DNA of 64,000 nucleotides from the IMG/VR virus record IMGVR_UViG_3300041409_000508, positions 7,199 to 71,198 of that record; one strand, written 5' to 3'. Position 1 is the stretch's first letter. Every line of letters begins with the position of its first letter. The notes beneath the pieces are model-generated. The model had not been told where the DNA came from and made no database searches. It worked only from the letters and a program-made list of their open reading frames with translations. The stretch is from a virus. This document shows positions 2,119-46,156 of this stretch, piece after piece. The translations under genes were made by a program, and so were the position numbers.

Positions 2119-3456
2119 ATGACGACTCTGCCGCTGGTCGGTGATGATGTTCTCGTGCCGCTGGTGACAGGCGGTATCTGCCGATATCGAAATTTCGACT
2201 ATGCCGCGTCCACACCCTGCCTGCTGTCGGTTCATCAAACTGTTGAGAAGTTGCTGCCCTGGTACAGCTCAGTGCATCGTGGCGCCGGCTGGAAGTCGCA
2301 AGTTACGACAAAGGCATATGAAGATGCAAGAGAAACGGTACGCAGCTTCGTCAATGCTCGTCCGGATGACTGTGTGTTGTTCACCCGCAACACTACTGAT
2401 TCGATCAACTTATTGATTTCCATGCTGCCACAGGATGCTGTTGTGGTGACTTGGGCATCGGGACATCATGCCGCACTGCTCCCACCTCGACGTCGTTATG
2501 TGATCACACTGCCGATCCCCACTAATTCTGATGAAGCTCTTAGTCGATTAGAGATAGCATTCCAAGGCATATATCCTCAAGCTTCTCTAGTGGTGGTCAC
2601 TGGTGCTAGTAACGTCACTGGCGAAATCTGGCCCTATCATAAGATCACTGAACTAGCTCACCAGTATGGCGCTCGTGTGTTACTTGACGCCGCACAGCTG
2701 GCACCACATCAGTTGATCGATCTGACTGCCAGTGATGTGGACTACATTGCGTTCAGCGGCCACAAGCTCTACGCGCCCTACGGTGCCGGCGTGCTGGTTG
2801 GACGTTGTCACTGGCTGGAGGAGGGAGAGCCGTTCCTAGCCGGTGGCGGTGCGGTGGACTTCGTCCGTGTTGAAGACGTGCTGTGGTCCGAGCTGCCGGA
2901 TCGGCAGGAAGCAGGATCACCGAATGTGCTGGGAGCGGTAGCGTTAGCTCAAGCCTGCCGAACATTGATGTCAGTTGACTTACAGAAGATAGCCACGCGA
3001 GAAGCCATGCTGATCGACGTACTGCGCACTGGCCTAGCGGCGATACCCGGCATTAAATTCTATCGAATGTGGCCAACAGATCACCCACAGGTCGGGATAC
3101 TTACGTTTAACCTGTATAACGTGCCTTACGCGAAGTTGGCTGCAATCCTGTCAGCGGAGTACGGCATCGGTGTCCGACATGGCTGTTTCTGTGCGCATCC
3201 GCTGATGATGCATCTTCTCGATATGAGCGACGATGAAGCTCTAGCTATCGCTACTGATCGACGGTTAGGACGAGCTACCCAAGTACCAGGCGCGGTACGA
3301 GCTTCAGTAGGAGTCGGGACGACAGTCGAAGATGTGCTGGCGCTGGTCACAGCAGTAGAAGAGATTGCAGTTGGGTATCGCAGGTGGGATTATCAGAGCA
3401 CGCTAGATGGTACCGACTGTGTGCCGGTGCCTGATCCACGTGAGTATCCTGTTTAG
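2119..3456 (+). CDS. PLP-dependent aminotransferase class V / SufS-like cysteine desulfurase
   Basis: Motifs NFDYAAST, VHRG, FTRNTT, SNVTG, DAAQ, SGHK (PLP lysine) and RHGCFCAHP (catalytic Cys loop). Confidence 0.9.
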   Translation: MTTLPLVGDDVLVPLVTGGICRYRNFDYAASTPCLLSVHQTVEKLLPWYSSVHRGAGWKSQVTTKAYEDARETVRSFVNARPDDCVLFTRNTTDSINLLISMLPQDAVVVTWASGHHAALLPPRRRYVITLPIPTNSDEALSRLEIAFQGIYPQASLVVVTGASNVTGEIWPYHKITELAHQYGARVLLDAAQLAPHQLIDLTASDVDYIAFSGHKLYAPYGAGVLVGRCHWLEEGEPFLAGGGAVDFVRVEDVLWSELPDRQEAGSPNVLGAVALAQACRTLMSVDLQKIATREAMLIDVLRTGLAAIPGIKFYRMWPTDHPQVGILTFNLYNVPYAKLAAILSAEYGIGVRHGCFCAHPLMMHLLDMSDDEALAIATDRRLGRATQVPGAVRASVGVGTTVEDVLALVTAVEEIAVGYRRWDYQSTLDGTDCVPVPDPREYPV

Positions 3457-9748: not shown

Positions 9749-10510
9749 CTATTTATAAGCGATATAGAGTGACACAATAGTGCCGATAGCCGCAACCGCG
9801 CCAAGAATGTATACCCACAGCGCATTGATGCCGGCACCTTTGCCTTCACTTCGTGTGAGTCGATCAGCGATGTCTTGTACTTGAACGGATATGCGGTCAT
9901 ACTCAGCCATCACCACGTCACGAGGGACGAACGCCTGTAATCGAGTCGTCATCTCTTGGATACGTTCGGTATTACGGTTAGCTAACGCTTCAGCTTCTTT
10001 ACGTGTGATAAGAGATGCCATCTGCGTAGTCACTGTATTCTGTAGACTGGTGATTCCTACAAAACGCATCTCAGTAGCTACTTCAGCTTTCGCAGTCGCT
10101 TGGTTCGCCGCGATCAATGCCGCATCGATAGCCGTCCGCTGAGCGGTGATAGCAGCTTCGATTGCTTTAGTTTGTGCCTCGAACCGTTGCTGCTGACGTA
10201 ACTCCATATCAGCACTACGAGAGTTGCTTGCATCGATCTGTGCCTCGAACCGTTGTTGGTTGCGTAGCTCCATGTCAGAAATGCGGGCATTGATGTATTC
10301 CAGCAGGGTAGAAACGGTCCATCCGCCACTAACTTCTATTGGAGTTTTACGCATTACCCACGGCATTACAGAATCCTGCCCGTAATGGTTGTAATGCTCA
10401 AACAGCCGCGACCAGTGATCGCCTGCTTCAGTGGTGTCCTGGTTGATGATATGACGATAGTCGCGGCGAGACAAATAACGAATAGCGCGGCGAGAAGGAT
10501 GGTCACTCAT
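9749..10510 (-). CDS. Coiled-coil protein with C-terminal TM helix
   Basis: Internal repeat DMELR(N/Q)QQRFEAQ; hydrophobic C-terminus; start uncertain. Confidence 0.6.
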   Translation of the reverse strand: MSDHPSRRAIRYLSRRDYRHIINQDTTEAGDHWSRLFEHYNHYGQDSVMPWVMRKTPIEVSGGWTVSTLLEYINARISDMELRNQQRFEAQIDASNSRSADMELRQQQRFEAQTKAIEAAITAQRTAIDAALIAANQATAKAEVATEMRFVGITSLQNTVTTQMASLITRKEAEALANRNTERIQEMTTRLQAFVPRDVVMAEYDRISVQVQDIADRLTRSEGKGAGINALWVYILGAVAAIGTIVSLYIAYK

Positions 10511-10654: not shown

Positions 10655-13600
10655 TTAAATGATCTCCGTGTCACCTTGAGTCGTACCTGATATATCGGTG
10701 TCCCCGACTGCAGTGCCACTCAGTGATGTGTCACCTGAAGCTGAGCTACTGACGAGTACCGTGTCCTGGCTGAGCTGTGTCAGAGCTACCGCGCCTACCG
10801 CCACGGTGTAGGTCAGCGTGACCGAGCCGACTTGTGGTGGCCACGGTGGCGGGGTGTAAACGGTCGCTGCCAGGACAGCGCTGGCCAGCGTGAGGACTGA
10901 GACGTCAGCGAACTTCAGTTGCCGAGCCGTGAGCAGCGCTGAGCTGGTAGTGGTCGCTGTCAGCGCCGCGGCGTCAGCGCGGCCGGCCAGCGCAAGGACC
11001 GATGTGCTGGTCGCTGCGCTGACTGATGCACGATCGGTACGCGTCGCTGTAACCAGCGCTGCAGCGGTAGTCGAACTGGCCAGCACTGCAGTGTCGGTGC
11101 GATGCGCGGCCAGCGTGGCTGAGCTGGTAGTCGTTGCGCTGACAAGACCAACGCCGCCGACCACAGCAGAGACAGAGCTGCTGGCGGTCGTTGTGCTGGC
11201 CAATGCTGCAACATCGGTCCGTGTCGCTGTCAGGGAAGCTGTGCTAGTCGTAGCCGAGTTAACAGTGCCGGTCTGAGTCCGGGTACTGATGACCGAGCTA
11301 GCCGCGGTTGTCGTGCCGGTCAGCGCAGCGCTGTCAGAGCGAGTAGCGGTGACCAGAGCTGTGCTGGCCGCGCTGCCGGTAGCTGCGCCAGGCCCTACAG
11401 CCAGAGCGGAGACGCTGGCACCAGCTGTAGTAGTGGAGCTGGTTGAGACCGCATAACCAGCGCTGACGGCCGTCGCGCTAGTAGTCGTAGTGCTGACAGC
11501 AGCAGTGTCGGTACGAGTAGCGGTAACCGTGCTGGCTGTAGTAGTCGAACTAGTCAGTGCCGCAGTATCGGTACGGCTTGCTGTGATCGCTGCACTATCA
11601 GTTGTCGCGCTGGCCAGAGCTGCAGTGTCAGTTCGAGTCGCAACAATCGACGCATTGGCTGTTGTCGACGCAACAATGGTAGTCGTAACCGCGAGAACTT
11701 CGACTGCGACGATCGAATAAGTTTGACTCGGAGTAGTGAGGCCGACTGTCTTAGATCCTGCTGAGCCGGCATCAGCGTGGAACCCACCGTAGACAGTGTA
11801 TTTAGTGGAAAGGAAGTTGTAGGTTTCTTCAGTGAAGGCGCCGGCACCGGTACGCCACACCCGAGAAGCACCGTCAGCAGCATTGAAGTCGGCGTTAAAG
11901 ATAACTACAGCAGAATGAGCGGCTGTCGTTGTAATAGCTAGCGTCGGTGCTGCTGAAGCCCCATTGCCTATCGCGCTGTTGCCTATTCCTGTCGATGACG
12001 AGAACCGCTCGACAGTGAAACCCCACTCTTTGGTACCGCCAGCCCGAGCAATAGAGAAGGTAAATGTTTCTGCAGTGGTCGCAGTCGCTGTCCAGGCGTA
12101 GAGCGTGTTGCGACCAGTAACATTGACCATGGACTGTGGCAGAGACCAGATAAGGCTGGTGCCACCGGTCGGCGTTGAGATGGTCTCTGTCGTGAAACAG
12201 GTAGCGCACGCGACCAGCACGTCGCCGACAGCAGTAGTGACAGAGACCGTCTTAGGGCTGGTGGTGGTCGTCCACGAGCCTTCGTACTTGGCGACGAACA
12301 CCGGAGCAACAGGAGCCACCGAAAGCCCGGTGACCGTGGTGCTAGCTGTTGTCGCTGAGGTCAGTGCTGCAGTGTCGGTACGAGCTGCAGCGGTTGACAC
12401 TGCTGCAGTTGTCGAACTGGTCAGTGTGGCGCTGTCAGCCCGAGTAACGACCACACTGGCAGCCGCAGTGACTGTGCTGGCTAGAGCTGCTGTGTCAGTC
12501 CGGCTAGCCACAACGCTGGCTGCAGTCGTAGTAACCGGGCTAGTGGTTGCCGGCCCTACAGCAGCCGCTGAGATGCTGGCGCTGGCTGTTGTGGTTGTGC
12601 TGACGGCTACGGCATAGACCGCGGTAACTGCCGCTGCTGACGTTGTAACTGCGCTGACTGCCGCAGTGTCAGTGCGCGCTGCGGTGATCGAAGTAACCGC
12701 AGTGCTGGCGCTCGTCAGACTAGCTGTGTCGGTACGTGATGCCGCGGATGTGAACCCAACAGTAGTAGCGGCAGTGACGACGCCAGGATTGATGGCGCTG
12801 GCAATAATAGATATGCTGGCTGTAGTAACCGAGCTGATTGCCGCTGTGTCGGTACGAGCAGCTGTTAGTGCTGCTGCGCTAGTTGTCGCTGAACTGACGT
12901 TAACATTACTGACGACAACAGCAGACACTGATGCGCTGGCAGTAGTGGCTGAGCTAAGGCCGGCTACATCAGACCGAGTTGCGATGATGCTGGCGTTAGC
13001 AGTACCGGCAGAGCTGAGAACTGCTGTGTCAGTCCGACTAGCCGCAATACTTGTGCCAGCTGTGGTGACCGCATTGACAACGATCGTCAGCGCGATGATC
13101 TCGACAGCGACAGCCGAGTAAGGGAAACTCGGCGCCGACATTCCCAACGTTTTGGCGCCTGTTGTGCCGACGTTTTTGTAATGTGCGCCGTAAGAAGTGT
13201 AGTGCGTCGCGAAGATGACGAATGTATCCGAGACTACTGCGCCAGACGTGAGATACGTCGCAGCAGTGCTGCCACCGTTGAAGTCGTTAGCACCGAACAC
13301 GCACAAGCTGTTAGGAGCTGTTGTGGTGAGGCTGGCGGTCGGCGCCGCTGAGGATGCGTTACTGGTAGCGGTTGCCACACCAGCGCCGTTGCTGTTGCTG
13401 AACTGGTAAGCGACAATGCCGCTTGCGCCACCACCGCTGTTTACCGCCGACAGTGTGAAAGTCTGGTTAGTAGCAGACTTATTCGTCGTCCACAGATAAA
13501 TGTTGTTGGTACCTGTGACGTTGACTACCGATGCCGCCAGCGTGTATGTGAGACCCGTGCCGCCAGTCGGAGCGCTGAACGTGACCGCAGTGGACTGGCT

Positions 13601-20088: not shown

Positions 20089-20109
20089 CAGTGCAGTTTG
20101 TGGTAGTAT
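20089..20109 (+). promoter_or_regulatory. Phage promoter motif, 1-unit form
   Basis: CAGTGCAGTTTGTGG-TAGTAT with ATG 7 nt downstream. Confidence 0.75.
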
Positions 20110-34037: not shown

Positions 34038-34292
34038 ATGAACATTGACGAACTTAAATCTCAATGGTGCGGATCAAAAGTTCGCACCGAACGACCACTC
34101 ACCGCAGAAGAGTTTCCTGAGTGGCTCCCTATGGGGGTTCTCAGTGAAGACTGGTTTCCGGGTTTCAAGTTCGGTGGTGAAGGTGTTGTTATTAACTTCA
34201 CCGAACGATCAGGAAAGATTTGGATGCAGACTGACTGGGGCATGGAATGGGTTATTGATGATCAAACAGAAATCATGCTTGTCACTTGGTAA
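34038..34292 (+). CDS. Leaderless antisense cassette gene
   Basis: 84-aa ORF that fills the gap up to the portal stop. Confidence 0.7.
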   Translation: MNIDELKSQWCGSKVRTERPLTAEEFPEWLPMGVLSEDWFPGFKFGGEGVVINFTERSGKIWMQTDWGMEWVIDDQTEIMLVTW

Positions 34293-35712: not shown

Positions 35713-35883
35713 ATGCAAAATATCGCCTATAGCGACAAACACATTGTTCATCGTAATGGAGATCCTGAATATCTATGGCCACTCTGTCGTATCTCACAAG
35801 AGCATCGTCCTAAAAAGTTTATTCTCACCGATCGTCTTGTTGACTGCCCACACTGTCAAGAACTACTTAACAGAAGGAGGTGA
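35713..35883 (+). CDS. Leaderless 56-aa H..C..CxxC miniprotein (not in track)
   Basis: IVHRNG..EYLWPLCR...TDRLVDCPHC. Confidence 0.65.
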   Translation: MQNIAYSDKHIVHRNGDPEYLWPLCRISQEHRPKKFILTDRLVDCPHCQELLNRRR

Positions 35884-36057
35884 CATCTCGCGCTGGCGTC
35901 GGGCGACGAGCGCAGCAGCACCCAGCAGCACGATGCCGGTCACCGCCAACCCAACCCAACCGATCCAGACAGCCGCCAAGAAGCCCAACCCAGCCGCCAC
36001 CAGCAAGATGCCCAGCACCTCTAGCGCCAGGATCACGATCTCATTGACTAATCTCAC
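35863..36057 (-). CDS. Small two-TM protein between terminase and portal
   Basis: Hydrophobic hairpin typical of this position in HK97-like phages. Confidence 0.65.
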   Translation of the reverse strand: MRLVNEIVILALEVLGILLVAAGLGFLAAVWIGWVGLAVTGIVLLGAAALVARRQREMSPPSVK

Positions 36058-36293
36058 ATCAGGAGACTAACCATGCTCGCATCAACACTACTTATCGGGG
36101 CACTCATCATGCTTACGCTCACTGCTTGTTCGTGTGTACTGATTCAATATCACACAAGACGAATCATGGAGTATCAAGAAACTCTTGTTCGTCGTCAGGA
36201 CACTGCGGTGTCGTCCGACTCATCAGTTCATAGGTCAGCGTAGCCAAACCCCACCAAGCCAGTCCCGATACACCCACGATCAGGAGTTTTCTC

Positions 36294-36476
36294 ATGAAAT
36301 GGCAAGATCGAGTAGCACTTATCGCTATCGCGGAAGTATTAGCTGAGCATCTTGAGAGTTGTGAAGACATGAAAGATAACGCGCTACTTCCTAGTGACCG
36401 AGTTCGAGGTGCGATAAAGAGTCTTACGGACAGCTATGCTGACGACTATCAGCACATCGATTCCAACACATCGTAA
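36294..36476 (+). CDS. Antisense small protein
   Basis: AGGAG SD; 60 aa; overlaps the terminase 3' end. Confidence 0.5.
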   Translation: MKWQDRVALIAIAEVLAEHLESCEDMKDNALLPSDRVRGAIKSLTDSYADDYQHIDSNTS

Positions 36477-37900
36477 GCCCGAGCTCCGTACACCGCTAAC
36501 CCATGCAGTGCCAGTGCAATGGCGAGTACCGGCGAGACGCTGTCCTCACTGCGTCGGCGGCTGAAGCTCCACAGGCCGTCACCAATATCACGCTTCTGCG
36601 CTATCCGAATGGCCTCACTGATGCAGGGCTGGTTGAGGTGACGCAGCTCGTCTATCGCGGTCGTCGCCTTGTGTAGCGCGCCACACGCCTGTCCTAGCTC
36701 ACGCACCCCGACCAGCTCAGGCTCTATCCCCGCGGCGCGTAAATCCTCCAGCAACGCTCCTGCCGGTCCCGCTGGATCGAGCACCCAGGCTGCCGGCGAC
36801 CACTGCTCCTGTAGCTCTACAGCGCGTTCCACCAGCCAGGTCACTCCCTGGCGGTGATCCAGTACGTCATCCCGACTGGTGACCTCGACATGCGGGATAC
36901 CGTCGATTCGATAGCCGGACACCGCGATACAACCGTACGACAGGTCTTCGTCTACCTCGATAGAGAAGACCATCGGGCTGGCTATTACCGACAGTGGGTC
37001 GGCCAGTAATGCCCACAGATTGAGATCGATGATCGGAGCACCCAGCGGGTCATCCCAGACACCAAGTACCTCACGAGCGAACTGATCTTCTGGCATGGAC
37101 CGCTGCGCGATCTGCAGCGTCTTCACTTTGATTCGTATCCCGAGAGCAGGATTAGCCATCGCCCAAGCAGCAGGCATATTGGCTACGTACTCAGGAGCTG
37201 CCTGATAAACCTCGCTAGGAATCGACCACTCGTAGTAAGCCAACCCTGGGTCTTTCGATATCCCACGATCACGAATCCTGCGCAACGCATCAGAATCCTT
37301 CTGGCCAGCACTGGAAATATACCAAATCTGCCAATTCTGCCGAGCGAAGAGAATCGGCATCAACGCGCCCATCTGAGTAGCCGCCAATGCGAACGCCTCA
37401 TCCATGAGGATCACATCGTATCCCGACCAGCCACGGGCACTGGTTGCGGTTCGAGCGACGAAGTCTATTCTCGCTCCTGACCGCAGAGTTATCGAGTAGT
37501 CGTTGGTACTGGCTTTGACCTTCTTCACCTCACGATCGAGATCAGGCGCGTTCTCGATCATGCGTATTGTTTCTTCATGAATCTTCTGTGTCGTCGTCAT
37601 GATGTGGCTGGTATAGATCACTCGTGACCTCATCAGAAACACCGCGTGCAGTGCGGCTACTTGCATGGTCACTGTCTTGAGGTTCTGCCTCGGCACGACC
37701 AAACCGACCTCAGGAGCTGACCACTCGCCGTCCTCTGTGTGCCCCAGCGCTCCCCACAAGATCCTCTTCTGTGCCGGGTCCATCGGCATGCCGGTCAGCG
37801 CGGCCAACTCGATCGCATCAGCACCAGAGCTGGTCACCCACGGCGGCACCGACTCGATCCGCGGTACCTGGCTGCCGATCAGTTTAGGGACAGCTATCAT
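36449..37900 (-). CDS. terL: Terminase large subunit
   Basis: VPRQNLKT (Walker A variant), ILMDEA (Walker B), YISSAG, ANPALG and FAREVLGVW motifs. Confidence 0.92.
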   Translation of the reverse strand: MIAVPKLIGSQVPRIESVPPWVTSSGADAIELAALTGMPMDPAQKRILWGALGHTEDGEWSAPEVGLVVPRQNLKTVTMQVAALHAVFLMRSRVIYTSHIMTTTQKIHEETIRMIENAPDLDREVKKVKASTNDYSITLRSGARIDFVARTATSARGWSGYDVILMDEAFALAATQMGALMPILFARQNWQIWYISSAGQKDSDALRRIRDRGISKDPGLAYYEWSIPSEVYQAAPEYVANMPAAWAMANPALGIRIKVKTLQIAQRSMPEDQFAREVLGVWDDPLGAPIIDLNLWALLADPLSVIASPMVFSIEVDEDLSYGCIAVSGYRIDGIPHVEVTSRDDVLDHRQGVTWLVERAVELQEQWSPAAWVLDPAGPAGALLEDLRAAGIEPELVGVRELGQACGALHKATTAIDELRHLNQPCISEAIRIAQKRDIGDGLWSFSRRRSEDSVSPVLAIALALHGLAVYGARAYDVLESMC

Positions 37901-38081
37901 TAGCCTTTTCACATGCTAAAGCAATCTGCCGAGCTTCCAACAGAGGATCAATATCAGGATGACCAGGCGACCATCTAGCAAGATAAGAAAGATTCGCGTC
38001 AATCACGTCAACAGTTCCCGCATTATAGCAACTTCCATAATGACCTTTTACCGTATACGTCGATTCTGGTGTATTCATCAT
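37884..38081 (-). CDS. Small protein, paralog of 29530..29814
   Basis: YNAGTVDVIDANL...HPDIDPLLEAR. Confidence 0.6.
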   Translation of the reverse strand: MMNTPESTYTVKGHYGSCYNAGTVDVIDANLSYLARWSPGHPDIDPLLEARQIALACEKANDSCP

Positions 38082-38362
38082 GCACCACCACTGCTCAGCC
38101 GCTTCTCACGCTTAGCCCTGATCCGGTCCAGATCGTTGCTCTTCGGCCGTCCCAGAGCGACTCGTTCTTTCTCCTGCGCTAGCTTGCGCAGCTCCGCCAG
38201 TACCCGCTGCAGTGCGCAGCCACTCGGCTGGTGGCCCTGGTCGAACGCCAGGGCGTGCTGGCGGCCGATCTGAATCAGGCCACACTCCCGTTCCACCAAC
38301 TCAGCAGGCAGCAGGCGCACCTGAGCGAGGTAAGAGCCCAGCGCGGTCGGTCCCGTTGCCAT
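38078..38362 (-). CDS. Terminase small subunit (putative)
   Basis: Position; helical; C-terminal DLDRIRAKREKR typical of actinophage TerS. Confidence 0.7.
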   Translation of the reverse strand: MATGPTALGSYLAQVRLLPAELVERECGLIQIGRQHALAFDQGHQPSGCALQRVLAELRKLAQEKERVALGRPKSNDLDRIRAKREKRLSSGGA

Positions 38363-38388
38363 CCCAACCTCCGATACTGTCTGCTGTC

Positions 38389-40209
38389 ATGACAAGGCCA
38401 GTCTCTACCAGAGCCGCTGACACTGCCGCGGTGCGCGCCATCGCCCAGGCGTGTGTCAACGTCGAGCTGTTCACCATCCCGCTGTACCTCGCCGCCGCTA
38501 CCTCGATCGCCGGCATGCACCAGATCACGGGGAAGAACAGCGACTTCTACACCGGACGCTGGTGGCCGGGTGCGGCGACCACAGCCAACCCGCAGACCAC
38601 TAACGAAACCGCTTACAACATCATGTTTTCAGTGCACGTCGAGGAGATGCTGCATCTCCAGCTCGCCGCTAATCTCGCCAGTGCAGTAGGAGTGACGCCG
38701 CTGTTCACGTCTCCAATACTGCAGGATGAGCAGTACGGCTGGACCTGCTACGACAGCTCTGTCATACCCCACGTCGTAGACTTAAAAGACACTGTCCACA
38801 GTGATGCCATAGTGAAGATAGATGGCCTCACTCGTGAGCAACTAGAGCTATTCTTGATTATCGAAGAGTCCGAAGTGACATCACGAAGTCATATCACCGC
38901 ACCAGAGAAATACTTTCCTACTGTCCCGTTCAATAACTGGACAGAAGAGATGACCGAAGTCGATCTGCCGATGTTCGGCACTATCGGCCATATGTATTCG
39001 TGCTATTACGAATATCTGAGCTCAGTGTACGAAGACGGCTTGACGTTATGGGATCACGTCTTCGTTCCCGACTCCCAGCAGAACGACCTGTTCAATGTCG
39101 AGAACACCGGTCATCCGAAGAAAGAATACACAGGATTTCGTACACTCATCACCACGTCAAACCCATCTAAAGCATACTCACAGGCTCTAGCGATGATGAA
39201 CGCCATCACCGATCAAGGCGAAGGTTCTGTGCTCGACCAGCGTTCTGATAACCCATCAGAGGTGGCGACTCAGTACGAAGCAGCTCAAGACGCCATGGAA
39301 GTCGACTATCCCTCTTACAGCGACACCGGAGAGCTAGCTCCTTCAGCTGACACGATGGCTCGTTATACTTACGGAGACTGGGATCACTACGACCGATTCA
39401 GTCAGCTACTGGAGATGGTCGATCAAGTGACTCTCTGGCCAGCTTGGCATAAGCAACACGGACCATGGACAGCTGACGATTTGCAGAGTATGCAAACTGA
39501 ACCCAGCTTCTACGACATCCCGAGTGCTGCTGACGTTGCTGATGCGATGAACCGCATAGCCGCAAGCCCTGATCTCATGCGACCACTGTTCAACCAGGCT
39601 GCTGTTGGTTCTCTGGCCGGCATCACAACCGTGCTCAACCAGTACTGGGCTAAACCTGACGTGATCTTCCCCTACCCGGCGATGGTGGGGTCAGGTGACC
39701 GCATGACGATGAGCTGGGCACTGTTCAGACTGCCACCAGACCTGTCAGTTGGTGCTGACACTAGCTCTGTCAGCGGGTCTGCGCACGCCTGCCAGAGCCT
39801 GAACCTGACAGAACCAGGCAACGACTGCGCTGCAATCGGGGTCTACCATTCCTGCCGCGGAGCCAACAACTGCGCCGGTCAAGGTGGCTGTGGCTTCGTG
39901 CAGAAGATCAGCGCCGCGCAGCCCAGCCAGCACGGCTTCGCCTTAGTGAAGGCCAAAGCTGCTACCAGCGGCCTGTTCAGCGCTCCCAGTGCGAACGCCT
40001 GCGCCGGCCAGGGTGGCTGTGCGGTCCCGATCTCAGCATCTCAGTTGCTCGTGCAGAGCGGGACGATGCAACTCTACGACGATGACCAGCCATTTGATGA
40101 GCTTGCATTCAGTAAGGGCGAGCCAGTGCACGAAGTAGCGATGCGCGCTGCTGGTCTAGACGAAGTACCACCCAATGATGTCCGGCTCGTGCTGCCGCCG
40201 GCAACCTGA
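38389..40209 (+). CDS. Ferritin-like di-iron domain protein (VioB/RebD C-terminal type) with Cys-rich C-terminal repeats
   Basis: VELFTIPLYL, EEMLH, DQGEG and HYDRF motifs; tail HSCRGANNCAGQGGCG and ANACAGQGGCA; TACTGT -10 shortly before ATG 38389. Confidence 0.85.
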   Translation: MTRPVSTRAADTAAVRAIAQACVNVELFTIPLYLAAATSIAGMHQITGKNSDFYTGRWWPGAATTANPQTTNETAYNIMFSVHVEEMLHLQLAANLASAVGVTPLFTSPILQDEQYGWTCYDSSVIPHVVDLKDTVHSDAIVKIDGLTREQLELFLIIEESEVTSRSHITAPEKYFPTVPFNNWTEEMTEVDLPMFGTIGHMYSCYYEYLSSVYEDGLTLWDHVFVPDSQQNDLFNVENTGHPKKEYTGFRTLITTSNPSKAYSQALAMMNAITDQGEGSVLDQRSDNPSEVATQYEAAQDAMEVDYPSYSDTGELAPSADTMARYTYGDWDHYDRFSQLLEMVDQVTLWPAWHKQHGPWTADDLQSMQTEPSFYDIPSAADVADAMNRIAASPDLMRPLFNQAAVGSLAGITTVLNQYWAKPDVIFPYPAMVGSGDRMTMSWALFRLPPDLSVGADTSSVSGSAHACQSLNLTEPGNDCAAIGVYHSCRGANNCAGQGGCGFVQKISAAQPSQHGFALVKAKAATSGLFSAPSANACAGQGGCAVPISASQLLVQSGTMQLYDDDQPFDELAFSKGEPVHEVAMRAAGLDEVPPNDVRLVLPPAT

Positions 40210-40219
40210 GCTTGCATGA

Positions 40220-40240
40220 CAGTACAGCATGTGGTAGTGT
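40220..40240 (+). promoter_or_regulatory. Phage promoter motif, 1-unit form, inside the MNIO cluster
   Basis: CAGTACAGCATGTGG-TAGTGT with ATG 7 nt downstream. Confidence 0.75.
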
Positions 40241-40247
40241 CTGAGCT

Positions 40248-40409
40248 ATGAACGAACGATGCACTTGTGAATACCCAGTCACTCCATTACGAACGAATCT
40301 TGGAGGACATTACAAATCATGCCCATTGTCTAGAGAACCTAACCGTGGATACAATTACTTTGTTCAAGCACAGTCACCACGAGAAGCAAAGCCAAAGAAA
40401 GATGAGTGA
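40248..40409 (+). CDS. Leaderless 53-aa Cys-containing miniprotein (not in track)
   Basis: MNERCTCEYP...GGHYKSCPLS; stop overlaps the DUF692 start. Confidence 0.65.
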   Translation: MNERCTCEYPVTPLRTNLGGHYKSCPLSREPNRGYNYFVQAQSPREAKPKKDE

Positions 40410-41205
40410 CTTCGGGGTCGGGTTGCGCTGGCCGCACCATCACTACCTGATGACCACACCCCCAGAGCAGTGGGATGTCGACTGGTTCGAGATCATCTCA
40501 GAGGACTTCTTCGAGGGCCTCGGCTCCCGAGTGCTGGCCAGAATCGGCACCCATAAACCGATCGCACTGCACGGTGTCTCACTGAACATCGGTGGTACCG
40601 ACCCGCTGGACTTCGACTACCTCCACAATCTTAAGATCCTCGCTGCGCAGACCGACCCGCGGTGGATCTCCGATCACTTGTGCTGGACCGGCGTTGCCGG
40701 CGTCGACACCCATGACCTGCTGCCGCTGCCACTCACCGAAGAAACGTTGGTTCATGTCGCCGGTCGGGTGCACTGCGTGCAGGAGTACCTGGACCGGCCA
40801 CTCGTACTGGAGAACCCGAGTAGCTACATCCAGTGGTCGGCATCGCAGATGACCGAGACAGAGTTTATGAAATGCCTGATCGGCCGTACCGGCTGTGGCC
40901 TGCTGCTCGACGTCAACAACGCCTACGTCACCGCGCACAACCAGGGCCGCAGCCCGATCGAGTACATCCAGAACTTCCCGATGAGTGCCGTCGCTTATCT
41001 GCACATCGCCGGCCACACCGACGACTTCAGCGGAATCCTGATCGACACCCACGATCGACCGGTGATCTCCGAAGTGTGGTCGCTGTACCGGCTTGCTCAG
41101 AACTACGCTGGCGGGCTGCCGACTTTGCTGGAGTGGGACTCGAACATCCCTGGCTTTCCTGAGCTTGTGACCGAACTGAACAAGGCTCGGGCCATCTGTG
41201 GCTGA
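40402..41205 (+). CDS. DUF692 multinuclear non-heme iron oxidative enzyme (MNIO; BufB/MbnB family)
   Basis: GVGLR, WFEIISE, HGVSL, SDHLCW, DLLPLP, LENP, LLLDVNN, HIAGH, IDTHD and LLEWD all intact. Confidence 0.95.
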   Translation: MSDFGVGLRWPHHHYLMTTPPEQWDVDWFEIISEDFFEGLGSRVLARIGTHKPIALHGVSLNIGGTDPLDFDYLHNLKILAAQTDPRWISDHLCWTGVAGVDTHDLLPLPLTEETLVHVAGRVHCVQEYLDRPLVLENPSSYIQWSASQMTETEFMKCLIGRTGCGLLLDVNNAYVTAHNQGRSPIEYIQNFPMSAVAYLHIAGHTDDFSGILIDTHDRPVISEVWSLYRLAQNYAGGLPTLLEWDSNIPGFPELVTELNKARAICG

Positions 41206-41359
41206 CTTACGAGCACTACAGCAGCATCTGCTAACGGCTATCATTACAGGCGATTCTACTGAGCACGTCACGGGTAGGCTCGATGTTTACGCGCGCAGTT
41301 ACAAGATCCGCACACTTCGCCGCGCTCTCGCCACCCTACAGCAATCCAAGATCATTTAA
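41198..41359 (+). CDS. Minimal DUF2063 (BufC/HvfC N-terminal-like) MNIO partner, 53 aa (not in track)
   Basis: LRALQQHLLTAI...RLDVYARSY..R overlapping the DUF692 stop. Confidence 0.7.
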   Translation: MADLRALQQHLLTAIITGDSTEHVTGRLDVYARSYKIRTLRRALATLQQSKII

Positions 41360-41364
41360 CTCTC

Positions 41365-41485
41365 GCTTGTTTCTCGTAAATATGTCAAAACTCGCTTCAT
41401 TATATTATTATGACCATCCTTAAAAATCAATCATCTTTTTGAATGAATATTATCTCATGAAATTTATTTTATTCATTTGAGATTG
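41365..41485. other. Very AT-rich non-coding tract; candidate packaging (cos/pac) region
   Basis: Most AT-rich stretch seen; lies between the terminase-associated HNH gene and terS. Confidence 0.4.
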
Positions 41486-41486
41486 G

Positions 41487-41517
41487 TAGTGCAGTATGAG
41501 ATAGGATGTGATAGACT
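41487..41517 (+). promoter_or_regulatory. Phage promoter motif, 2-unit form
   Basis: TAGTGCAGTATGAGA-TAGGATGTGA-TAGACT. Confidence 0.7.
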
Positions 41518-41538
41518 TGAGTTAACAACGAGGAGCTG

Positions 41539-41673
41539 ATGAAGATGACAACCAATCACCATTACACACGACGAGTTGACCTTGTTGATCTCATTCGTAG
41601 TCGTGCGTACTACTTCATGGCTGGTGCTGTTGTCTCACCAATCCTTGACATCATCTACCACATCTACTACTAG
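41539..41673 (+). CDS. 44-aa small protein (not in track)
   Basis: GAGGAG SD; hydrophobic C-terminus. Confidence 0.5.
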   Translation: MKMTTNHHYTRRVDLVDLIRSRAYYFMAGAVVSPILDIIYHIYY

Positions 41674-41705
41674 CGTGGGAGTGCAGTATGTGGTACACTA
41701 GTAAT

Positions 41706-41909
41706 ATGAGCGAGACAGAAACCACTAGCCAGCTACCCACTACCATGCGTCTGCGGTGCAACCAAGATTACATCAATGGGTGTGGTCAACTAGCTACTGT
41801 CCCTGTCACCTACACACCAATCGGCATCAACACAATATGGAAAGCCGCAGATGGTACGTGTGAGTGTGGACTACGCCTCACTCGTGTGATCACAGTTCGC
41901 ACCAGCTAA
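41706..41909 (+). CDS. Leaderless Cys-containing small protein
   Basis: GAGTGCAGTATGTGG-TACACT motif (41679-41699) 6 nt before the ATG. Confidence 0.65.
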   Translation: MSETETTSQLPTTMRLRCNQDYINGCGQLATVPVTYTPIGINTIWKAADGTCECGLRLTRVITVRTS

Positions 41910-42251
41910 CTACCATCTACGGCTGCCAGTCGCTAGCTGTGCTAGCGACTTGCGGCGTGCGCTGGCCAGCCCGCGCAGCAGGTTGGAATGCCGCGTGTTG
42001 CACCCGCGGTGCGCCACTGTCAGGTTCGCCGGATCCTCCGGCGCACCACCCTGCTCTAGACCTACGATGTGGTGCACCGTGGCCGCACGGCCATGGTTAG
42101 GTGCTACCTGAGTAAGCGCGTAGTCGATCGGTCGCCGGCACAGGTAGCACGGCCTACGGTGCATCGCAGACCAGGCCAGCGTCTCCGCCTTTAGCCGCTG
42201 CCACGTACCCGTAGTGCGACCAGGCCCAGTCTTGACCACCCGATGCTCCAT
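41910..42251 (-). CDS. Terminase-associated HNH endonuclease (HK97 gp74-like)
   Basis: CYLC..PIDY, TVHHIV...GG...DPANL..AHRGCN; ends SRRW. Confidence 0.85.
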   Translation of the reverse strand: MEHRVVKTGPGRTTGTWQRLKAETLAWSAMHRRPCYLCRRPIDYALTQVAPNHGRAATVHHIVGLEQGGAPEDPANLTVAHRGCNTRHSNLLRGLASARRKSLAQLATGSRRW

Positions 42252-42271
42252 TCGAGTGAACTGCTAGTTAG

Positions 42272-42302
42272 CAGTGCAGTATGAGGTAAAGTGTGCTATA
42301 CT
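42272..42302 (+). promoter_or_regulatory. Phage promoter motif, 2-unit form
   Basis: CAGTGCAGTATGAGG-TAAAGTGTGC-TATACT with ATG 6 nt downstream. Confidence 0.75.
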
Positions 42303-42308
42303 AAGACT

Positions 42309-42551
42309 ATGAGAAAAACAATCGGACGCAACGCCACCCGCAAGATCGCTGAAGTAAGAGCCAAGAATCTTCAGTGTAATGCATATAATCTAGGCAACAG
42401 CTTCATCGCTACTGAATGCGATCCTGAGTTTGCATGGAAGCGATTTGAGACGCGTGACTACTCCCGACTCAGTGTTGATGAAAATGGTAAATATACGATA
42501 AGGGTTCACGACAATTGCTGGTATGAGCTCACTGAGAACGATGAAAATTAA
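42309..42551 (+). CDS. Leaderless hypothetical protein
   Basis: Motif promoter; YTIRVHDNCWYEL. Confidence 0.7.
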   Translation: MRKTIGRNATRKIAEVRAKNLQCNAYNLGNSFIATECDPEFAWKRFETRDYSRLSVDENGKYTIRVHDNCWYELTENDEN

Positions 42552-42886
42552 ATCACTGAAGCATAGATGAAGCAGTAAGCTTTCGCCAGCTTCGACCAGC
42601 CCGTGGACGACAGTGACGGCACTGTCCGATCATCGACGTACTCAGACAGCTTAGCCTCACCGACGCCAAGCTCAGCAGCGAACGTACGGCGCACGTAGCT
42701 AGCCAGACCTGCTGAACCACCTATCGAGCGCATGCGAACTGCCAGCACGTCACGGATGAGATCGCCAGTCTCTCCTAGCAGTGACAAACCAGCGATCTCA
42801 CCTGGCGGCACACGACCGTACGAGCCTCGCAGCACCAGCCACGTACCAGCTGTGTCGCCGTAGAGCACTTGCCACTGATCAGACAA
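42548..42886 (-). CDS. Hypothetical protein
   Basis: 112-aa ORF with GGAG upstream. Confidence 0.45.
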   Translation of the reverse strand: MSDQWQVLYGDTAGTWLVLRGSYGRVPPGEIAGLSLLGETGDLIRDVLAVRMRSIGGSAGLASYVRRTFAAELGVGEAKLSEYVDDRTVPSLSSTGWSKLAKAYCFIYASVI

Positions 42887-42918
42887 CAGTACTCCATTCA
42901 GGTGACATCGGAAGTTGA

Positions 42919-42949
42919 CAGTGTAGTATGAGGTAGAGTGTGATAGACT
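42919..42949 (+). promoter_or_regulatory. Phage promoter motif, 2-unit form
   Basis: CAGTGTAGTATGAGG-TAGAGTGTGA-TAGACT. Confidence 0.7.
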
Positions 42950-42979
42950 AGTGTTAACACCGAAGCCAAGGAGATCAAA

Positions 42980-43186
42980 ATGAGCGAGAACTTCACCACC
43001 GGAAGCGTCGAAGACTTCGACTTCGGTTACTCAGCAGAAGAGTACGACACCAAAGACTCCCGATACACTGTCACCGCTCTCGAACTCATCAATCCGCAAC
43101 TTCGTTACGAATGCCCAGAAGTCAACTGCACCCGACGTTTCGCCGCTGGCTACTCCATCGACTGTCACATCAGAGACGACCACTAA
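42980..43186 (+). CDS. Acidic N-terminal module plus C2H2 zinc-finger-like domain
   Basis: AAGGAG SD; YECPEVNCTRRF....IDCHIRDDH. Confidence 0.7.
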   Translation: MSENFTTGSVEDFDFGYSAEEYDTKDSRYTVTALELINPQLRYECPEVNCTRRFAAGYSIDCHIRDDH

Positions 43187-43360: not shown

Positions 43361-43391
43361 TAGTGCAGTATGAGGTAAAGTGTGCTACACT
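43361..43391 (+). promoter_or_regulatory. Phage promoter motif, 2-unit form
   Basis: TAGTGCAGTATGAGG-TAAAGTGTGC-TACACT with ATG 6 nt downstream. Confidence 0.75.
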
Positions 43392-43397
43392 AAGACT

Positions 43398-43763
43398 ATG
43401 AGCGAAAACGCAAACATCGGAAGCGTCGAAGACTTCGACTTCGGTTACTCAGCAGAAGAGTATGACAAAGGCGAAATCCGCACTGCAGATGTCATCACCG
43501 AAGCAAAACGCAACGTTGCTCGCAGGATCGAAACTCTTGAAAACGACTTCGATGTCCCGATGTGCGCCAATGACATGATCATCGCACTTCGCACGATCAG
43601 TTTCTGGGCCAAAGATGAAACCACCGTCATCGCATCAATCACCGATGCTCGGTTTTCTTACCTAGCCAGTGCTGCACTAGATGGCCTAGACAGTACTGCA
43701 GATGTCTTCGACATTGCAGAGATCAAAGATCTGTCAGCTACCACAGTCTCGCTGAGCTGGTGA
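43398..43763 (+). CDS. Leaderless protein sharing the acidic N-terminal module with 42980..43186
   Basis: GSVEDFDFGYSAEEYD is identical in both. Confidence 0.7.
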   Translation: MSENANIGSVEDFDFGYSAEEYDKGEIRTADVITEAKRNVARRIETLENDFDVPMCANDMIIALRTISFWAKDETTVIASITDARFSYLASAALDGLDSTADVFDIAEIKDLSATTVSLSW

Positions 43764-45733: not shown

Positions 45734-46156
45734 CTAGTTGTGGTACCAGTTCTGGAAGTTACCACCATTGCAAGGAAGAGTATAGACGCTGTTAGCCGTG
45801 TTCGAGTCAAGACAACGACCAGTAGCCACATCCACTACACGATGTGCAGAACGCTCTACTCGCCACTTCTGAAAGTTGCCGCCATTACAGGGCAGTGTGT
45901 AGACGTTGCCATTGGTGTTCGAGTCGAGGCAGAACAGTGTGGAGACATCCCGCACTGTAGTGGTCGTACCAGAGCTAATCCAGTTCTGGAAATTGCCGCC
46001 GTTGCAGCCGATCGCGTACACATTGCCTGACGTGTTCGAGTCCAGGCAGTGCAGGGTCGCTACATCACGAAACGTCGACGTAGCCGCCGAAGCGCTAGGC
46101 GCAAATAGCAGTAGCGAGACAATGCTGAACAAAGCAATCAGAACATTACGAAACAC
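45734..46156 (-). CDS. Secreted ricin-B beta-trefoil lectin, actinohivin-like
   Basis: Signal peptide followed by three CLDSNT.GNVY...CNGGNFQ.W-type repeats. Confidence 0.9.
   Translation of the reverse strand: [140 protein letters not shown]

Follow-up and report, generated by a model that had tools for sequence, protein, structure and literature searches.

A cassette of three genes, located at positions 38389-41359 of a 64,000-nucleotide stretch of viral DNA (hereafter the window, corresponding to bases 7199-71198 of the 71,198-bp IMG/VR virus record IMGVR_UViG_3300041409_000508), places an enzyme family of bacterial peptide modification in a novel tailed phage of the actinobacterial type. 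It encodes a 606-amino acid (aa) ferritin-like protein with a Cys-rich tail, an enzyme of the MNIO (DUF692) family and a 53-aa derivative of the DUF2063-type partner of such enzymes. Taken as a whole, the cassette is probably best explained as a phage moron cassette derived from a bacterial bufferin-like module. Three points are new, namely its carriage by a phage, the insertion of a putative phage promoter within it, and the 53-aa size of the partner.

A conserved three-gene module in bacteria

The fusion of a ferritin-like domain to a Cys-rich segment, which a first-pass annotation of the sequence had pointed out in the phage, is not confined to it and belongs to a widespread bacterial family with MNIO and DUF2063 genes downstream. 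Among 8,000 scored candidates, 826 homologues of the 606-aa protein were found at E <= 0.001, and the best 120 listed are 41-90% identical to it, with the match spanning at least 96% of its length in 118 cases. Twelve clusters of metagenome proteins reach 68-90% identity; ten cover at least 98% of the protein and two are partial (79% and 71%). The sources of the homologues include Saccharothrix, Actinosynnema, Actinokineospora, Actinophytocola, Acidimicrobiales, Caulobacter, Allosphingosinicella, Myxococcus and Spartinivicinus, and the ferritin-like proteins of the bacterial trio are 41-58% identical to that of the phage over the full length.

A pattern scan of one genome per species recovered 365 genome loci encoding ferritin-like relatives, and metagenomes added at least 316 loci; neighbouring genes were counted in the best 80 of each set. 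In genomes, 79 of the 80 loci have an MNIO gene as the immediate downstream neighbour in the same orientation, its product being 50-59% identical to the phage enzyme, and the single miss (L027) is a locus that ends 32 nucleotides (nt) after the ferritin-like gene. In metagenomes, an MNIO gene comes next in all 65 loci that extend at least 1.1 kb further, and a homologue of the partner follows in all 52 loci that extend at least 2.1 kb, the latter being a tblastn count confined to the metagenome loci. All five bacterial partners tested (265-304 aa) pass the Pfam model for DUF2063 (PF09836), scoring 57-68 bits against a cut-off of 27.2. No other flanking family was detected in more than about 15 of 80 loci, which is a weak negative, since the crude clustering of open reading frames (ORFs) was noisy owing to antisense ORFs of high-GC DNA. 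By these neighbour counts, the conserved unit comprises the ferritin-like/Cys-tail protein, the MNIO and the DUF2063 partner.

The arrangement recalls bufferin operons, whose gene order is given as bufA-bufB-bufC in PMC11626156 and in section 13 of PMC12452194. Five genomes (G001-G005, behind loci L021, L012, L041, L053 and L017, respectively) carry two or three MNIO genes each, and in all five one of these lies beside the ferritin-like gene. In three of them (G001, G003 and G004), a small BufA2-like ORF was detected at E <= 0.01, each time directly upstream of another MNIO gene, with scores of 25-31 bits that fall below the NCBIfam cut-off of 60. Considering that BufA2-like ORFs sit directly upstream of another MNIO gene in these three genomes, the ferritin-like gene appears to fill the precursor slot of its own module. 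In one genome, a PF12902 paralogue of 426 aa was also found, which lacks the Cys tail and is not near any MNIO gene.

The literature searched, supplementary tables not covered, contains no description of a ferritin-like fusion associated with an MNIO. In the main text of PMC12452194, the terms ferritin, PF12902, phage and virus do not occur, and its Table S1, which covers domains near MNIO genes, may name PF12902. MNIOs are familiar as enzymes that produce small, exported peptides able to bind copper; the module described here suggests that they also mature a large intracellular protein, and does so for at least 365 bacterial genome loci in several phyla.

The ferritin-like protein and its Cys-rich tail

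The gene for the 606-aa protein occupies 38389-40209 (plus strand), with an ATG supported by the alignment of homologues. The first-pass description of a ferritin-like protein with ExxTIPxYL-, EEMLH- and DQGEG-type motifs is borne out by the Pfam Ferritin-like model PF12902 (77.9 bits against a cut-off of 22.3, residues 20-292), and the motifs VELFTIPLY (E26), EEMLH (E86, H89) and DQGEG (D275, E278) show no variation across 45 aligned homologues, and neither do E159, E246 and H333. No NCBIfam model and no Pfam model other than PF12902 matched the protein. An AlphaFold2 model built on the 45 homologues has a mean predicted local distance difference test score (pLDDT) of 81 and a predicted template modelling score of 0.87, and its residues 1-455 (38389-39753) are confident, mostly above 85, and form a domain of the CC_0557/PF12902 type. 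The only clear structural relative is PDB entry 3hl1 (Foldseek E 1e-9, profile E 1e-9), which superposes on residues 9-453 with a VIA Z score of 24.2 and a root-mean-square deviation of 2.5 over 268 aligned residues. Dps, bacterioferritin and di-iron proteins reach Z scores of 7-10 only, values that for helical bundles indicate merely a common fold. Residues E26, E86-x-x-H89, E159, E246, D275, E278 and H333 are, by their invariance in the sequence alignment, candidate ligands of a two-metal site.

Downstream of this domain, the protein continues into a Cys/Gly-rich tail (residues 461-546; 39769-40026), the proposed MNIO substrate, and ends in a segment of residues 555-606 (40051-40209), for which AlphaFold2 predicts a beta-hairpin (strands 558-564 and 567-574) and helices (580-587 and 597-601) with pLDDT values of 64-81. 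This end closes with a conserved RLV-x-PP-x-T before the stop codon; R599 and P604 are invariant in the 45 homologues, and about 16 residues near the C-terminus that bacterial homologues possess are missing from the phage clade. The tail itself has pLDDT values below 50 despite its high conservation. C468, C489, C495, C501, C538 and C544 are invariant in the 45 homologues and C480 nearly so, and each of the two motifs H-x-C-x-G-x-N-x-C-x3-G-G-C and N-x-C-x3-G-G-C-[AG]-x-P is present in 119 of 120 homologues. No N-terminal signal peptide was found in the 120 homologues and no hydrophobic N-terminal stretch in the 606-aa protein, as the first-pass annotation had noted for the phage protein. In the homologues, the first helix begins after a median of 34 residues, and it is this amphipathic helix that forms the most hydrophobic stretch of the N-terminal region.

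When residues 455-606 were searched with phmmer against 1.84 billion representative sequences, 101 matches were obtained at E <= 0.001. Most of these belong to the same family, with the tail ending proteins of 600-800 aa. The search also reaches three small signal-peptide proteins, P0210 (E 5.7e-5), P0219 (3.8e-4) and P0223 (6.7e-4), links that are weak and run through Cys/Gly-rich sequence of biased composition. These small proteins contain two or four H-x-C-[KS]-G-x-N-x-C-K-G-x-G-G-C repeats and score 43.5, 43 and 24.3 bits, respectively, on the NCBIfam BufA2 model, values that indicate relatedness without reaching the cut-off of 60. An alignment of the phage tail with these proteins shows the His, three Cys, Gly, Asn and GGC of one full module to be invariant, as well as the N-x-C-x3-GGC of a second one. 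The likeness of the tail to BufA2, as read from the sequences, is thus one of motifs. The BufA2-type repeats of the first-pass annotation stand at the level of these conserved motifs and not at the level of the BufA2 model, on which the tail scores 10.2 bits (E 0.66, cut-off 60). On balance, the tail is probably the substrate of the adjacent MNIO.

A different reading would make the ferritin-like protein a second enzyme or a scaffold whose tail binds a metal or an Fe-S centre unmodified, with the MNIO acting elsewhere, for example on a small peptide encoded at another place, on a host bufferin precursor or on a variable ORF between the two genes. The confidently ferritin-like nature of the N-terminal 455 residues, a fold used by di-iron oxidases, and the invariance of the candidate carboxylate and His ligands would fit such a role; a conserved Cys/Gly segment of low pLDDT is also expected of a metal-dependent fold, and a phage-encoded cysteine-desulfurase-type aminotransferase (PF00266) would fit Fe-S chemistry. 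In addition, a Cys-containing ORF lies directly before the MNIO gene in both the window and its sister viral contig L083 (described below). However, the gap of about 20-150 nt at this place in most of the 79 genome loci means that no small ORF is conserved there, and the ORFs of the two phages are mutually unrelated. The presence of a separate MNIO beside the BufA2-like ORF in three of the five genomes indicates that the ferritin-side MNIO is not needed for those ORFs, the crude clustering of flanking ORFs brought up no further family in more than about 15 of 80 loci, and the tail has the same H-x-C-x-G-x-N-x-C-x3-G-G-C module as BufA2-like proteins. An unmodified tail beside an MNIO with another target is therefore an unlikely explanation, and modification of the tail remains the favored one.

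The MNIO enzyme

The second gene (40402-41205, plus strand) encodes a BufB-type MNIO of 267 aa from the ATG at 40402. It scores 317.4 bits on PF05114 and passes the NCBIfam BufB model (NF050167) narrowly, with 316.3 bits against a cut-off of 310; it fails the HvfB model (229 bits, cut-off 360) and is far below the cut-offs of the ApyH, MbnB and ChrH models. The claim of the first-pass annotation that the metal-ligand motifs of this DUF692 enzyme are intact is confirmed at nine positions: H57, H92, E137, D170, N173, H201, D215, H217 and E244 are invariant in 14 aligned MNIOs. They correspond to the iron ligands of MbnB given in PMC9060507 (His54, His90, Glu133, Asp163, Asn166, His192, Asp208, His210 and Glu239), a mapping made by motif, with the positions falling in conserved blocks aligned to 3bww, 8hci and 7dz9.

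A partner reduced to 53 residues

The third gene (41198-41359, plus strand), whose GTG start codon overlaps the stop codon of the MNIO gene, encodes a mini-partner of 53 aa, in comparison with about 265-304 aa for bacterial partners. The first-pass annotation had listed an overlapping DUF2063-like partner; the overlap stands and the remnant aligns with bacterial partners, but it amounts to 53 aa only and has no match in any Pfam or NCBIfam family, PF09836 and HvfC included. A profile was built from 61 of the 80 downstream ORFs picked, those of 250-345 aa, the remaining approximately 19 loci, picked in the wrong frame, being dropped. Against this profile the phage ORFs match positions 6-67 of 282, approximately, with 12-13 bits. 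The L-x2-LQ...RL-x-VYARSY-x-IR part of the mini-partner, its first ~40 residues, aligns with the first helices of the DUF2063 domain, and its end, RALATLQQ, aligns with the last helix of that domain (ALARLERA). Since both ends align with the first and last helices, an internal deletion together with loss of the RRE-type domain is suggested. The mini-partner of L083 has 51 aa and 66-69% identity, so that its length is nearly kept while the DNA just downstream differs.

The mini-partner is predicted to dock on the MNIO. Modeled complexes of the two proteins gave interface (ipSAE) scores of 0.90, 0.90 and 0.88, compared with 0.01 for the best of three controls; the pLDDT of the partner was at least 81, and at least 88% of the contacts were common to the runs. 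In these models, mini-partner residues 3-42 contact MNIO residues 65-66, 95-118, 142-147, 180 and 210-214. The calibrated mark was reached by 58 of 80 solved complexes and by two of 110 mismatched pairs, a calibration that is approximate for the custom alignments used here.

The metagenome contigs most closely related to the phage cassette, L086 and L085, show intermediate stages of reduction. In L086, the partner (10674-11027) is a free-standing protein of 117 aa that consists of a complete DUF2063 domain alone (54.1 bits), and in L085 (3082-4662), such a domain alone is fused in frame to the MNIO. L086 is a 48-kb contig with a T5orf172 domain, a weak HerA-like match, a YdjM match and many ORFs without matches, and may represent another mobile element. 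The series from about 280 aa through 117 aa or a fused domain to 53 aa provides natural truncation variants. For the question of what a partner contributes to an MNIO, a naturally minimized protein of 53 aa, kept by selection and with predicted docking on the enzyme, offers a direct test of what suffices for activity.

Residence in a phage genome

The IMG/VR record has direct terminal repeats and a CheckV completeness of 100. Within the window, a portal gene was identified by Pfam (PF04860), and PHROG matches include the large terminase, prohead protease, major head protein, helicase and DNA polymerase; further genes encode a primase-polymerase/AAA protein and an Rv2525c-like domain protein. 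A search with the large terminase (36449-37912, minus strand) matched 1,805 phage records, all below 60% identity, and the nearest enzymes belong to Rhodococcus, Mycobacterium and Gordonia phages (approximately 33-36%), so the source is a novel tailed phage of the actinobacterial type. The cassette lies between minus-strand packaging genes and a minus-strand HNH endonuclease gene (41910-42251), and the GC content of the region (0.54-0.57) does not depart from that of the window (0.50-0.61).

Two further viral contigs carry the cassette or part of it. L083 is a 35-kb contig whose ferritin-like protein and MNIO are 87% and 86% identical to those of the window, and L084 is a 7.4-kb contig with the same junction between packaging genes and ferritin-like gene, which ends inside a cassette gene. 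Divergent from the cassette and adjoining the large terminase gene is an ORF of 94 aa (38078-38362, minus strand), which is kept in L083 (91% DNA identity, with a ratio of nonsynonymous to synonymous substitution rates, dN/dS, of 0.18) and in L084 (82% DNA identity). The name terS given to it in the first-pass annotation is unconfirmed, as no Pfam or PHROG family matches it. At the junction of this ORF with the ferritin-like gene, L084 agrees with the window, and in L083 an N6/N4 DNA methylase gene (PF01555; 6910-8004 of L083) with its own motif promoter is inserted, overlapping the start of the ferritin-like gene. L083 also carries a 143-aa ORF of no known family directly before the MNIO gene (9883-10314) and a gene for a 474-aa flavin monooxygenase-like protein (PF13738, PF00743; 11309-12733) directly after the mini-partner. 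The latter falls exactly between the mini-partner gene and an AT-rich intergenic region of the type that closes the cassette in the window (41360-41530, with the next motif copy at 41488). As all three of these genes are absent from the window, the slot is a hot spot of gene gain and loss. The ferritin-like, MNIO and mini-partner genes form its constant core, since selection keeps them while their neighbors come and go.

The genes are of bacterial type and occur in no cultured phage record, as an assembly chimera or bacterial contamination would also produce. Such an artifact can be given hardly any probability, considering that the record is complete with terminal repeats, that its GC content shows no departure, that putative phage promoters lie inside and after the cassette, and that the packaging-gene/ferritin-like junction is common to three separately assembled viral contigs (the window, L083 and L084). 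Moreover, a Logan contig of sequencing run X1 bridges positions 36000-38534 without a single difference; since X1 is possibly the source sample, this contig represents an independent assembler and not an independent sample. In run X2, from another soil study, relatives were detected across all 30 bins of the stretch, with both junction types present. Parts of 39042-39509 and 40446-43000 are thinly covered or uncovered by X1 contigs, from which no inference is drawn. No RNA run was listed as containing the stretch, which speaks neither for nor against expression. The contiguity of cassette and packaging genes raised in the first-pass annotation is thereby corroborated, and the chimeric host insertion that it had considered is excluded by the shared and bridged junction. 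A complete phage genome, phage genes on both sides, a copy of the phage motif at 40221 and dN/dS values of 0.09-0.27 characterize the unit as a moron cassette, and both its residence in the phage and its bacterial origin are very nearly certain.

Among viruses the cassette is rare. A tblastn search with both proteins found no MNIO in 50,697 GenBank phage records, a 10-kb near-identity DNA search against GenBank phages gave no match, and PHROGs contain no family for either the ferritin-like protein or the MNIO. Two pattern scans of 2.9 million IMG/VR contigs (HDLLP[LM]P[LY] plus LLDVNN[VA][YFH], or patterns taken from the phage protein) returned one other MNIO contig, a sister of the present phage, although distant MNIO types could escape these patterns. 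No description of a phage-encoded MNIO was found in the literature searched, in agreement with the first-pass annotation, which knew of no characterized example. The enzyme therefore appears to be the first MNIO in a virus.

A phage motif within the cassette

A sequence motif of about 30 nt, a putative phage promoter, recurs on the plus strand of the window, consisting of a core AGTRCAGTNTG, then tgGTAGnnT, and then about 7 nt to an ATG. A scan at up to two mismatches returned 38 matches, a number reached by none of 100 shuffles, and 15 selected plus-strand copies have their positions at 20090, 21442, 24165, 28893, 34011, 35687, 40221, 41488, 41680, 42273, 42920, 43362, 44043, 45289 and 46196. 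One copy (40206-40247, plus strand) lies between the ferritin-like and MNIO genes, with its core at 40221-40231 and a -10-like TAGTGT at 40235-40240, 7 nt before the ATG at 40248, and about 50 nt around it are nearly identical at the same place in L083. A general scan for promoter and terminator consensus sequences gave chance-level counts.

The ATG at 40248 opens a leaderless ORF of 53 aa with three Cys residues (40248-40409, plus strand), whose stop codon overlaps the MNIO start codon (ATGAGTGA). In both phages the ORF in this place overlaps the MNIO start in the same manner, the one in L083 being an unrelated ORF of 143 aa. The peptide, named beside the Cys-rich tail as a possible target of modification in the first-pass annotation, is rejected as a precursor, as it matches no Pfam or NCBIfam family and has no homologue in L083. 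Because L083 holds an unrelated ORF in the same slot, the intergenic ORF is not a conserved precursor, and it is probably a variable filler or moron ORF. In bacterial loci, mostly about 20-150 nt separate the two genes.

Several other copies of the motif lie within the minus-strand block of virion genes, before small antisense-oriented leaderless ORFs (34038-34292 and 35713-35883 being examples). Copies in the early region are longer, with a second unit added. Three small early ORFs (42291-42551, 42980-43186 and 43380-43763, plus strand) have near-identical putative promoters; two of them share an N-terminal block beginning MCYTKTM..., and two share a run ending ...GSVEDFDFGYSAEEYD, with different C-termini. 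These ORFs are a mosaic of duplicated modules.

Origin and selection

Phylogenies of the ferritin-like protein and of the MNIO were inferred with FastTree for 37 rows, the window and 36 loci hand-picked for taxonomic spread; the sequences at hand numbered approximately 158 ferritin-like and 148 MNIO proteins, of which the others were left out. Both trees give the order (L085,(L086,(L083,window))), nested with Actinomycetota, and place the phage clade with Pseudonocardiaceae and Acidimicrobiia. The agreement of the two trees indicates that the cassette genes moved together, probably from Actinomycetota, and with Shimodaira-Hasegawa-like supports and a midpoint root no donor is proven.

Comparison of the window with L083, at dS values of about 0.6-0.7, gives dN/dS ratios of 0.116 (ferritin-like gene), 0.085 (MNIO gene) and 0.27 (mini-partner gene), against 0.047 for the large terminase gene; the values come from one sequence pair, and that of the mini-partner from only 38 substitutions. 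All three cassette genes are under purifying selection, and these ratios at such dS values mean that they were kept across substantial divergence.

These data bear on the possibility that the cassette is a decaying passenger that has lost its partner and its upstream promoter and whose remaining genes are nonfunctional. The reduction of the partner to 53 aa without a family match would be understandable in such a passenger, as would the absence from the window of the methylase gene and promoter found ahead of the ferritin-like gene in L083, the freedom with which the region gains and loses genes, and the requirement for BufC1 in the modification of Buf1 described in PMC11626156. Yet the low dN/dS values, the intact reading frames in both phages, the near-constant length of the mini-partner (53 versus 51 aa), the twelve metagenome clusters close to the 606-aa protein, the retention of all MNIO ligand positions and the conserved phage motif before the MNIO in both phages all speak against decay, which is accordingly quite improbable.

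Proposed function of the cassette

The favored explanation, a moron cassette of bufferin-like ancestry, can be elaborated as follows. An actinophage-like tailed soil phage took up the cassette in one piece, probably from Actinomycetota, as an auxiliary, moron-type set of genes. Its ancestor was a bacterial module comprising a cytoplasmic ferritin-like/Cys-tail protein of about 600-660 aa, a BufB-type MNIO and a DUF2063 partner. By analogy with BufA/BufB/BufC, the MNIO, held active by its partner, would oxidize cysteines of the tail (in HSCRGxNxCxGQGGC and NxCxGQGGC) to 5-thiooxazoles. This would yield, within the cell, a site that binds metal (probably copper) with high affinity and is attached to the ferritin-like domain. 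The phage version of the partner is cut down to 53 aa and would keep the MNIO-docking helices while lacking the peptide-recognition (RRE-type) domain, and a putative phage promoter was placed before the MNIO gene. The phage may then express the set during infection, as a buffer in the host cytoplasm against copper or oxidative stress or for some other handling of metal.

Individual parts of this scheme differ in strength. A working viral system of the kind that produces peptides made on the ribosome and modified after their translation (RiPPs), in which a BufB-type oxidase activated by the mini-partner puts thiooxazole ligands on the tail, with the same chemistry in hundreds of bacterial species, is possible rather than probable. 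The suggestion that buffering of copper or of oxidative stress is the benefit to the phage is likewise tentative.

Several points weigh against the scheme. For the substrate role of the tail, Pfam searches with the tail alone at E values up to 10 returned nothing (as did those with the middle domain), the BufA2 model stays far below its cut-off, and phmmer connects it to BufA2-like proteins weakly. In its own right, the ferritin-like domain could be enzymatic, with a role unrelated to metal buffering. Expression of the ferritin-like gene in the phage is uncertain: no copy of the phage motif precedes it in the window, its ATG is 26 nt from the divergent ORF, and no sigma-70-like site was found before it in the consensus scan with its chance-level counts overall. 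The score of the predicted complex may reflect likeness only, because complexes of MNIOs with their partners have been solved (MbnBC: 7dz9, 7fc0 and 7tcr; TglHI: 8hci). According to PMC11626156, BufC1 together with BufB1 is required and sufficient for the modification of Buf1; with a partner that lacks about 80% of its length, the phage MNIO might consequently be inactive or dependent on a host partner. Finally, the evidence for selection has the single-pair basis already given.

If the scheme is correct, the mini-partner would represent the minimal element that an MNIO needs from its DUF2063 helper, and the reaction would yield a novel type of metalloprotein that handles copper or iron within the cell, deployed in infection. 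A viral MNIO would add metal-ligand biosynthesis to the auxiliary functions of phages.

Other features of the window

The HNH endonuclease gene beyond the cassette (PF01844; phrog_338) lies near the terminase genes, as is common among phages whose packaging requires an HNH protein. At 2119-3456 (plus strand), the window encodes a class-V aminotransferase of 445 aa (PF00266, 266.9 bits) from the cysteine desulfurase family, and its co-occurrence with the MNIO cassette hints at a sulfur/metal theme among the auxiliary genes of this phage. A 140-aa protein encoded at 45734-46156 (minus strand) combines a signal peptide with three ricin-type beta-trefoil repeats (PF00652, 57.7 bits), features that characterize it, from its sequence, as a secreted lectin-like protein encoded by the phage.

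Comparison with known systems

The closest structural relative of the ferritin-like domain, CC_0557 of Caulobacter vibrioides (PDB 3hl1, a structural-genomics entry described as a ferritin-like protein), comprises 282-317 residues, is 17-23% identical and lacks the Cys tail. Among modification systems, HvfA-HvfB-HvfC of Haemophilus influenzae offers a precedent, described in PMC11252979, in which an MNIO and a DUF2063-type partner modify a protein, not a short peptide, to make copper ligands. On the corresponding models, the phage MNIO and the bacterial partners of the present module fall well short, with 229 bits on HvfB (cut-off 360) and 16.6-29.6 bits on HvfC (cut-off 142), respectively. 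The substrate of the Hvf system is not known to be a ferritin-like fusion.

Bufferins provide the closest chemical model. In bufferin 1, as reported in PMC11626156, BufB1 with BufC1 turns Cys residues into copper-binding 5-thiooxazoles, with a mass shift of -4.03 Da per modified Cys. Bufferin 2 of Caulobacter vibrioides (BufA2-BufB2-BufC2; BUF_6/12Cys; Leprevost et al. 2024, PMC11626156) has the same order of Cys protein, MNIO and DUF2063 partner as the phage cassette, whose MNIO passes the BufB model and whose tail contains the BufA2-like H-x-C-x-G-x-N-x-C-x3-G-G-C module. In contrast, BufA2, as described there, is small and exported, with a Sec signal peptide ahead of a 61-residue core, whereas the Cys segment of the phage is the tail of a signal-less 606-aa protein; the phage partner has 53 aa instead of about 260, and the carrier is viral. 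The cassette would work in the manner of a bufferin system, yet it lacks two features that define one, the small precursor with a signal peptide and, in the phage, the DUF2063-RRE partner.

Short partners have precedents among the PME-type 2 MNIO partners of Antoine et al. (2025; PMC12452194), section 18 of which describes partners too short for both domains that probably consist of a DUF2063-related domain alone, one example having 115 residues. The 117-aa partner of L086 and the fused domain of L085 fit this description, whereas the phage partner is less than half the length of the shortest example named in that section and is apparently an internally deleted DUF2063 domain. According to section 19 of the same paper, partners with the DUF2063 signature accompany precursors that have a signal peptide, and signal-less precursors have partners of other types. 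The bacterial trio breaks this reported rule by combining a DUF2063 partner with a signal-less ferritin-like protein. The phage cassette shares with this trio its protein family, its synteny and its lack of a signal peptide, and differs from it in the mini-partner that stands in place of a full DUF2063 partner, in the deletion of about 16 residues and in the putative phage promoter between the genes.

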